DNA of 64,000 nucleotides, from NCBI RefSeq assembly GCF_002854065.1, contig NZ_CP024147.1; one strand, written 5' to 3'. Positions within the stretch are counted from its first letter, which is position 1. The number at the start of each line of letters is the position of its first letter. A program made the translations under genes and the position numbers. This stretch comes from Escherichia coli. GTDB lineage: Bacteria; Pseudomonadota; Gammaproteobacteria; Enterobacterales; Enterobacteriaceae. A model generated the notes under the pieces. It saw only the letters and a list, made by a program, of their open reading frames with translations, had not been told where the DNA came from and did no database searches. Of this stretch, positions 27,319-29,817 are shown in pieces.

Positions 27319-27466
27319 ACTTTTTTCCTGCTTCACGGTCAGAGTAAACAGCAAAACGCCGTAAGACCGGAAAGCAAAAGGTTTTAAAGTGATGAAAGGT
27401 CTATTATCATCGGCATATTACAGATGAGCCACGTACTGCTCGGGCCCGAAAAGGAATCAAATCACT

Positions 27467-27808
27467 ATGCGCTGTAAAACGCTGACTGCTGCAGCAGCAG
27501 TACTATTGATGTTGACCGCAGGCTGTTCCACTCTGGAGCGAGTGGTTTACCGTCCTGACATCAACCAGGGGAACTATCTGACCGCTAACGACGTATCCAA
27601 AATACGTGTTGGCATGACGCAACAACAAGTTGCGTACGCATTGGGTACACCGCTGATGTCCGATCCATTTGGTACGAATACCTGGTTCTATGTCTTCCGC
27701 CAGCAACCAGGTCATGAAGGTGTAACGCAGCAAACGCTGACGCTAACCTTTAACAGTAGCGGTGTGTTGACCAATATTGATAACAAACCTGCGCTGAGTG
27801 GTAACTAA
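27467..27808 (+). CDS. bamE: Outer membrane protein assembly factor BamE (lipoprotein)
   Basis: 113-aa ORF, lipobox LTAGC. Confidence 0.93.
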
Positions 27809-27834
27809 TAATAAAGTTGCTCTCAAAGACGTTA

Positions 27835-27862
27835 AAAAAGGTGCTCAATGAGCACCTTTTTT
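27835..27862. terminator. Bidirectional terminator between bamE and ratB
   Basis: aaaaaaggtgctc-aatg-agcacctttttt: perfect hairpin with A-run and T-run on either side. Confidence 0.7.
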
Positions 27863-27869
27863 CTGTCCG

Positions 27870-28160
27870 TTATTTATTCGCTGATTTTTCTGCTCGTTGC
27901 CTGCGAAGCTCTTTCGGATCGGCAATGAGAGGGCGATAAATCTCCACCCGATCACCATCATGCACACTATCGCTTAGTTTTGCCGGACGGCTGTAAATGC
28001 CGACTTTGTTTTTAGTTAAATCGATATCGGTCCGCAATTCCAGCAAGCCACTGGCGCGAATAGCTTCTTCAACCGTCGCGCCCTCCTGCAGCGTCACGCG
28101 CTGCAGGTACTGCTTCTCAGGTAGCGCATAAGCCACCTCAACGGCAATTTTACCTGGCAC
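27870..28160 (-). CDS. ratB: RatB (YfjF; RnfH/ubiquitin-like fold)
   Basis: Conserved region begins at a GTG codon ([19 protein letters not shown]...), giving 96 aa; the ORF-track N-terminal extension overlaps ratA. Confidence 0.75.
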
Positions 28161-28626
28161 TGTAAACCTCTTTCGCACGAACCGTAAAAGCCTGGACCAT
28201 ATTAGACGCCAGCTCTTTAAACACGCGACCAAAGGCGAGCTCAATCAACTTATTGGTAAACTCAAAGTCGAGATGAAACTCGATACGACACGCCTCCTGG
28301 CTCAGCGGCGTAAACTTCCATCCACCAATCAATTTCTTGAACGGCCCATCCACCAGATTCATAAGAATACTTTGGTTACTGGTCAACTGGTTGCGGGTAG
28401 TAAACGTTTTGCTGATCCCAGCCTTAGAGACATCTACCGCCGCAGTCATCTGCCCAGGAGTGGACTCCAGAATCCGACTTCCGGTACAACCCGGCAAAAA
28501 CTGAGGATAAGACTGAACGTCATTCACTAACTGATACATTTGCTCCGCGCTGTAGGGTACCAGTGCGGTCCGGCTAATCTGAGGCATAACAATTTCCATC
28601 AACAAAAATCCAACAAATAATATCAT
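28150..28626 (-). CDS. ratA: Ribosome-association toxin RatA (SRPBCC / polyketide-cyclase-like fold)
   Basis: 158-aa ORF; true start may be the internal [16 protein letters not shown]. Confidence 0.85.
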
Positions 28627-28757
28627 TTATCCTGCTGTAAAAAAAACGCTATCCCGGCGCTGGGTAACATCGGGTTCATGCTAAGATAGAGCCTTGTCCC
28701 CCGCAGGATTGATATGGGGTGTTTTCGATTTCAGATTACCGATGATTCACGACGCTT

Positions 28758-29240
28758 ATGACGAAGAAAAAAGCACATAAACCTGGTTCAGCGACCATCG
28801 CGCTTAACAAGCGCGCCCGTCACGAATACTTTATCGAAGAAGAGTTCGAAGCGGGACTTGCCCTGCAAGGCTGGGAAGTTAAATCCCTGCGCGCAGGAAA
28901 AGCCAATATCAGCGACAGCTACGTCCTTCTGCGTGACGGAGAGGCATTTCTGTTTGGCGCTAACATCACGCCAATGGCCGTGGCCTCCACGCATGTGGTG
29001 TGCGATCCTACCCGTACCCGCAAGTTACTTCTCAACCAGCGCGAACTGGACTCATTGTACGGTCGCGTCAATCGAGAAGGCTATACCGTAGTGGCGCTCT
29101 CCCTGTACTGGAAAAATGCCTGGTGCAAAGTGAAAATCGGCGTCGCCAAAGGTAAGAAACAGCACGATAAACGTTCAGATATCAAAGAGCGCGAATGGCA
29201 GGTGGATAAAGCGCGTATCATGAAAAATGCCCACCGTTAA
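28758..29240 (+). CDS. smpB: SsrA-binding protein SmpB
   Basis: 160-aa [54 protein letters not shown]... Confidence 0.95.
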
Positions 29241-29454
29241 ACCTGCACTCCAATTATTGACCAGTTCCTCACCGCGCCTCCCTCTCCGGCGGCGCGAATG
29301 AACATCTTATTGGTTATCACATCCGACACAAATGTTGCCATTCCATTGCTTAATCGAATAAAAATCAGGCTACATGGGTGCTAAATCTTTAACGATAACG
29401 CCATTGAGGCTGGTCATGGCGCTCATAAATCTGGTATACTTACCTTTACACATT

Positions 29455-29817
29455 GGGGCTGATTCTGGATTCGACGGGATTTGCGAAACCCAAGGTGCAT
29501 GCCGAGGGGCGGTTGGCCTCGTAAAAAGCCGCAAAAAATAGTCGCAAACGACGAAAACTACGCTTTAGCAGCTTAATAACCTGCTTAGAGCCCTCTCTCC
29601 CTAGCCTCCGCTCTTAGGACGGGGATCAAGAGAGGTCAAACCCAAAAGAGATCGCGTGGAAGCCCTGCCTGGGGTTGAAGCGTTAAAACTTAATCAGGCT
29701 AGTTTGTTAGTGGCGTGTCCGTCCGCAGCTGGCAAGCGAATGTAAAGACTGACTAAGCATGTAGTACCGAGGATGTAGGAATTTCGGACGCGGGTTCAAC
29801 TCCCGCCAGCTCCACCA
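29455..29817 (+). ncRNA. ssrA: tmRNA (transfer-messenger RNA)
   Basis: ggggctgattctggattcgacggg ... gcgggttcaactcccgccagctccacca; internal tag reading frame gcaaacgacgaaaactacgctttagcagcttaa (ANDENYALAA-stop). Confidence 0.95.

Follow-up and report, generated by a model that had tools for sequence, protein, structure and literature searches.

The pasTI operon of uropathogenic Escherichia coli CFT073 (Norton & Mulvey 2012; Fino et al. 2020), orthologous to ratAB, was first described as a toxin–antitoxin system, a reading with which later work disagrees (PMC7424257). PasT/RatA has since been identified as a Coq10 homologue, and the current view of RatA is that of a ubiquinone chaperone of the Coq10 type, not a toxin (PMC11988751, PMC7424257). 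The toxicity of RatA has been attributed to an artefact of an over-long ratA ORF and ratB deletion is viable (PMC11988751), expression of pasT or pasI is reported not to inhibit growth (PMC7424257), and the literature argues against a type II toxin–antitoxin pair RatA/RatB. RatB itself is present at approximately 50 copies per cell in the proteomics cited by PMC7424257. It belongs to the same Pfam family as RnfH of the Rnf complex (8AHX chain H) and the RnfH-like protein 2HJ1 of H. influenzae. Unlike RnfH in the rnf/rsx operon, however, RatB adjoins ratA, bamE and smpB, and an rnf/rsx-encoded Rnf-subunit context is not found for it among these neighbours. The ratAB-type context has been described as the second common context of the RnfH family (Fasnacht et al. 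preprint), and the lack of rnf/rsx neighbours leaves the membership of RatB in that family by sequence unaffected. A more general point of comparison is provided by overlapping gene pairs on the same strand, for which reviews report that overlaps of −4, −1 and −8 nt are over-represented and coupled, frequently where the two genes encode subunits of one complex, and that coupling efficiency drops with overlap length (PMC6728339, PMC10666635, PMC12548453).

Here, we examine the ratA/ratB junction in a window of 64,000 nucleotides of E. coli DNA (contig NZ_CP024147.1), which carries, in order, recN, bamE (+), ratB/yfjF and ratA (−), then smpB and ssrA. The features needed below are as follows.

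27870..28160, minus strand: ratB/yfjF/pasI coding sequence, 96 codons plus TAA, for an RnfH-family ubiquitin-fold protein (PF03658, NF002490); same extent in RefSeq and K-12
28158..28160, minus strand: probable GTG initiation codon of ratB, conserved among relatives; the ‘original SC (GTG)’ of PMC7424257
28166..28172, minus strand: putative ratB Shine–Dalgarno (SD) sequence AAGAGGT, within the Lys-Glu-Val codons of ratA; gap from GAGGT to GTG 5 nt
28150..28160, minus strand: ratA/ratB overlap of 11 nt, from the ratB GTG to the ratA TAA
28161..28244, minus strand: probably spurious extension of the ratB ORF, an out-of-frame reading of the ratA 3′ end, with apparently incidental TTG 28244, TTG 28232 and GTG 28178
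28150..28587, minus strand: ratA/pasT coding sequence from Met14, 145 codons plus TAA, for a Coq10-like START/polyketide-cyclase fold (PF03364, NF007999, PGAP, PMC11988751)
28588..28626, minus strand: 13 codons by which the ORF track and the K-12 record over-extend ratA; according to PMC11988751 they hold part of the native sigma-70 promoter
27834..27862, no strand assigned: bidirectional intrinsic terminator hairpin between bamE and ratB, A6-GGTGCTC-AAT-GAGCACC-T6, found by RNA folding

The minus-strand sequence across the junction is GCG AAA GAG GTT TAC AGT GCC AGG TAA in the ratA frame and GTG CCA GGT AAA ATT GCC in the ratB frame, with the ratB GTG at 28160..28158, the ratA TAA at 28152..28150 and 11 nt common to both genes. 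An overlap of this length had been proposed in a first-pass annotation, and it agrees with the minus-strand coordinates 28150-28160 as well as with RefSeq PGAP (WP_001117838.1, ‘RnfH family protein’) and K-12 MG1655 (b2618, NP_417108.4), both of which give ratB as 291 nt with an 11-nt ratA overlap. The K-12 gene is thus the same gene, GTG start included, without material difference. The pasI gene of CFT073 was likewise cloned from GTG CCA GGT AAA, named there the ‘original SC (GTG)’ (primer GTGCCAGGTAAAATTGCC; Fino et al. 2020, PMC7424257), and ratB has been described as overlapping the end of ratA (Fasnacht et al. preprint). With RefSeq, K-12 and Fino et al. 2020 all using it already, the GTG start is known, as is the overlap, and our finding re-derives accepted annotation.

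The 901-nt segment around the junction matches several non-K-12 E. coli chromosomes at 100% identity and occurs in 5,425 of 5,426 complete E. coli genomes. Directly upstream of the ratAB promoter region lie smpB and the 5′ part of ssrA (28758-29240 and 29455-29800); the neighbourhood of ssrA is the CP4-57 prophage attachment region in K-12, and a strain matching at 100% has ypjA next. An Rfam scan of 27400-29800 identified ssrA as tmRNA (RF00023, 255.7 bits), and the tmRNA was its only hit apart from sub-threshold matches on the terminator hairpin. That hairpin is strong and common to the convergent genes bamE and ratB, folding at −17.3 kcal/mol (z = −6.2; 0 of 200 shuffles equally stable); it was missed by a promoter/terminator pattern scan and recovered by RNA folding.

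A mechanical ORF call extends ratB to 27870..28244, that is, to 124 aa opening at TTG 28244. The 84 nt (28 codons) that it adds ahead of the GTG lie entirely within ratA, one base out of frame; the peptide quoted for it in the first-pass annotation, like all coordinates given there, is correct. Hence there are two ways to read the gene: as a 96-residue protein that starts in the last codons of ratA, or as a long RatB initiated at TTG 28244 (124 aa) or TTG 28232. For the long form it can be said that the frame is open from 28244 and that a few public records carry such proteins, for example the Klebsiella entry P0024, in which RnfH is over-extended to 120 aa and starts in the ratA overlap frame.

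To compare the two readings at the DNA level, we used 80 loci of other species, 71 of which have a ratA homologue directly upstream, together with the window (81 loci). An in-frame ratB/rnfH start stands at the equivalent position in 77 of the 81 loci (54 GTG, 22 ATG and 1 doubtful TTG at locus L072), and wherever ratA is directly upstream an in-frame rnfH start falls inside its last 20 nt (71/71). In 24 loci no codon between the upstream in-frame stop and the conserved one could serve as a start, and the open frame ahead of the rnfH start is shorter than the 28 codons of E. coli in 40 of 77 loci.

The extension was analysed over the 84-nt stretch in 17 well-aligned Enterobacteriaceae. Third positions of ratA codons account for 75% of the substitutions, and at the amino-acid level the extension frame is 51% identical to E. 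coli, compared with 89% when the stretch is read as RatA and 81% over RatB residues 1–28. The extension frame is interrupted by stop codons in 6 of the 17. The 28 codons therefore appear to evolve as third-position noise of ratA and not as RatB coding sequence, consistent with the first-pass annotation, which had taken them for the out-of-frame 3′ end of ratA and which the substitution pattern and the stops in relatives bear out.

Protein-family evidence places the N-terminus at the same point. RatB belongs to the RnfH family by sequence, scoring above the curated cut-offs of both PF03658 (23.7 bits) and NF002490 (75 bits). The PF03658 (Ub-RnfH) match (E = 7e-35, 119.7 bits) covers the whole model with residues 33-115 of the 124-aa ORF, and the NF002490 match (E = 2.4e-45, 152.9 bits) aligns ORF residues 32-124 with model positions 3-95 of 96. 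Close homologues, mostly 94–98 aa long, align with no more than the final ~77% of the 124-aa ORF. An exhaustive HMMER search over 1.84 billion cluster representatives (50%-identity clusters) returned 3,586 RatB relatives. In the 140 of the best 150 whose alignments reach the N-terminal region, the number of residues ahead of the E. coli GTG position has a median of +2 (interquartile range 0–4). The few longer RnfH N-termini are mutually unrelated, except for one that is evidently the same out-of-frame read-through. The solved homologues 2HJ1 and 8AHX chain H start at or just before the first beta-strand, as does the 96-aa RatB, for which the AF2 model (pLDDT ~90) gives a beta-beta-alpha...beta layout with beta1 at residues 4-12. 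RatB is thus predicted to be a compact ubiquitin-like beta-grasp domain from its N-terminus on. Taken together, the HMM boundaries, the N-termini of homologues and the upstream stops in relatives indicate that a longer N-terminus is not common to the family, so that what the first-pass annotation had named as refuting the GTG start, a longer N-terminus shared by homologues, did not turn up.

Public databases also contain RatA–RnfH fusions (P0001, P0002, P0006 and P0010), which were considered as possible frameshift products and rejected; given that each comes from a single short-contig assembly and that the junction points differ, we treat them as sequencing or assembly errors.

Ribosome-binding signals single out the same codon. 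Nearly all Enterobacterales loci carry GAGGT or GAGGTG 4–5 nt ahead of the rnfH start, and in the window the ratB GTG site is predicted to pair with the anti-SD sequence of 16S rRNA (3′ end) at −6.5 kcal/mol, the best of four in-frame candidates. The two TTG codons that would open a long RatB have no SD (−2.2 kcal/mol for TTG 28244 and −1.9 kcal/mol for TTG 28232). With the extension also absent from the family HMMs and the solved structures, the long form appears effectively refuted by the comparative data, and we regard its existence as extremely improbable.

The fourth candidate, GTG 28176-28178 (−), is in frame six codons upstream of the ratB start and arises from a CGT arginine codon of ratA. 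Initiation there would yield a minor 102-aa proteoform beside the 96-aa form, and the codon is present in the window and at the same position in 5 of the 80 relatives’ loci (L003, L012, L016, L019 and L022). However, it depends on the ratA arginine being encoded by CGT, and it is lost in most relatives, whose codon is CGC, CGG or CGA. Its anti-SD pairing is weak (−3.2 kcal/mol), and a start at this codon would put the real SD within the coding sequence. This GTG is probably incidental, and a second proteoform from it is very unlikely. In a search for direct evidence of the initiation site or N-terminus, neither yfjF nor ratB was named in the supplementary data of TRAINSPOTTER (PMC13245402) or of PMC11005335, a riboproteogenomics study.

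The family boundary, the conserved start and the SD agree on the GTG at 28158-28160 within the last codons of ratA, as had first been proposed from the window alone, and we assign the ratB start to this codon, 28160..28158 in the direction of reading, with very high confidence and would expect its use in vivo. The practical value of the result is small: taking the raw longest ORF makes ratB 28 codons too long and ratA 13, and the curated annotation of ratB is right.

For ratA itself the public annotations differ, with 477 nt in K-12 versus 438 nt in PGAP. The start in the ORF track (ATG 28626, 158 aa) is that of the over-long K-12 version, and PGAP gives 145 aa from ATG 28587. RatA matches PF03364 (E = 1e-38), and its match to NCBIfam NF007999 runs over residues 14-157 of the long ORF. 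In the experiments of Fasnacht et al. 2025, RatA was made from Met14 alone, and the long form was responsible for the reported ‘toxicity’ (PMC11988751). Met14 (28587) as the real ratA start is thus supported by PGAP, the NCBIfam model and published experiments.

Across the 71 loci with ratA upstream the overlap falls into four lengths. The 11-nt overlap occurs in 23 loci, mostly Enterobacteriaceae and mostly with GTG; 8 nt is found in 41 (other Enterobacterales, Alteromonadales, Aeromonas and some Pasteurellaceae), 4 nt (ATGA/GTGA) in 5 (Betaproteobacteria and two Alteromonadales) and 17 nt in 2 (Citrobacter). The length shifts stepwise between clades and the reading phase of the 4-nt class is unlike that of the others, but none of the 71 loci lacks an overlap. 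Nine Pasteurellaceae loci (L052, L054-L056, L060, L061, L064, L065 and L074) have no ratA-like ORF ending near rnfH and use an ATG of their own; the open frame upstream is 1–16 codons in eight of them and long in L065. The pairing with ratA is therefore not universal.

This layout has much in common with that of coupled overlapping pairs of the −4/−1/−8 classes. As in those, the genes are co-directional and the ratB start precedes the ratA stop (all 71 loci overlap, by 4, 8, 11 or 17 nt), and the ribosome-binding site, AAGAGGT at 28172-28166, lies inside the upstream gene. Relatives of the locus have the classical −4 and −8 spacings, whereas the −11 nt of E. coli lies outside the classes that have been measured experimentally. 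Given that the ratB start lies 11 nt before the end of the ratA UAA, ribosomes terminating on ratA would pass it, and the layout favours coupling. We consider a meaningful contribution of translational coupling, which the first-pass annotation called probable, plausible and somewhat probable, judging from gene layout.

One conceivable basis for coupling, a structure that masks the SD until ratA is translated, was considered and rejected. In the minimum-energy fold of the E. coli junction the AGAGGU of the SD is paired with GCCUUU inside ratA, but this stem is no stabler than shuffled sequence (z = +0.76), and no conserved SD-hiding structure was found across 72 loci, in which the mean pairing probability of the SD is 0.51 versus a background of 0.58 and the partners vary. 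A model in which ribosomes unfold the RNA is therefore without support, leaving re-initiation or independent initiation.

In published work RatB is reported to fall strongly in a ratA deletion (log2 fold change −6.75, data not displayed there; Fasnacht et al. preprint), and the −10 box of the native ratAB promoter lies within the annotated ratA ORF (PMC11988751). As proof of coupling the drop is confounded by promoter loss: because of the position of the −10 box, it is uninformative on coupling versus transcription. The deletion is presumably of the Keio collection design, which we take to remove the −10 box.

Independent initiation would mean that RatB starts at GTG 28160 but that free 30S subunits bind an exposed SD, the overlap reflecting genome compaction and no coupling. 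It is consistent with an SD that is reasonably strong and well spaced and is not occluded by any conserved structure, with the nine Pasteurellaceae loci in which rnfH begins at a start of its own, without a ratA ORF just ahead of it, and with an overlap longer than the classes measured for re-initiation. In addition, an AF2 prediction of a GS-linked RatA–RatB fusion (44 paired sequences) gave two confident domains but an interface that is not confident (pTM 0.59), a weak negative that says little on whether the two proteins bind. Against this, the overlap is kept in 71/71 beta- and gammaproteobacterial loci despite changes in length and phase, which suggests selection on the junction itself, and ribosomes terminating 11 nt downstream would physically cover the start site, so that some interplay between ratA and ratB seems unavoidable. 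We regard fully independent initiation as possible but rather unlikely.

The account that we favour instead is that ratA and ratB form a two-gene operon, transcribed to the left across the window up to the hairpin terminator that also serves bamE. The 96-residue RatB would be translated starting at GUG 28160..28158. The GAGG(U) SD, 5–6 nt upstream in the Glu-Val codons of the conserved K-E-V-Y motif at the C-terminus of RatA, would position the ribosome there. Ribosomes ending ratA would cross the ratB start and halt just beyond it, at the UAA 11 nt on, and coupling would most likely occur through SD-aided re-initiation by the terminating ribosome, not through the opening of a structure that masks the SD. 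The upstream extension of 28 codons would not be translated as RatB. As a whole, we judge this explanation highly likely, with the contribution of coupling somewhat probable.

At the ratA/rnfH junction the start signal of one gene is neatly written into the gene before it, as in textbook examples, with an overlap wherever ratA lies upstream, and the conserved overlap is a modest argument for linked expression of RatA and RatB. A stronger reading, which we regard as speculative and doubtful, is that RatB acts together with RatA, the carrier of ubiquinone resembling Coq10, and is obligatorily co-translated with it, so that coupling would set the ratio of the two proteins. It is suggested by the ratB start and SD sitting in the codons of the conserved RatA K-E-V-Y motif and by the retention of the overlap across beta- and gammaproteobacterial ratA loci. 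If true, such co-translation would tie the RnfH fold, known from a subunit of the Rnf complex, to ubiquinone handling.
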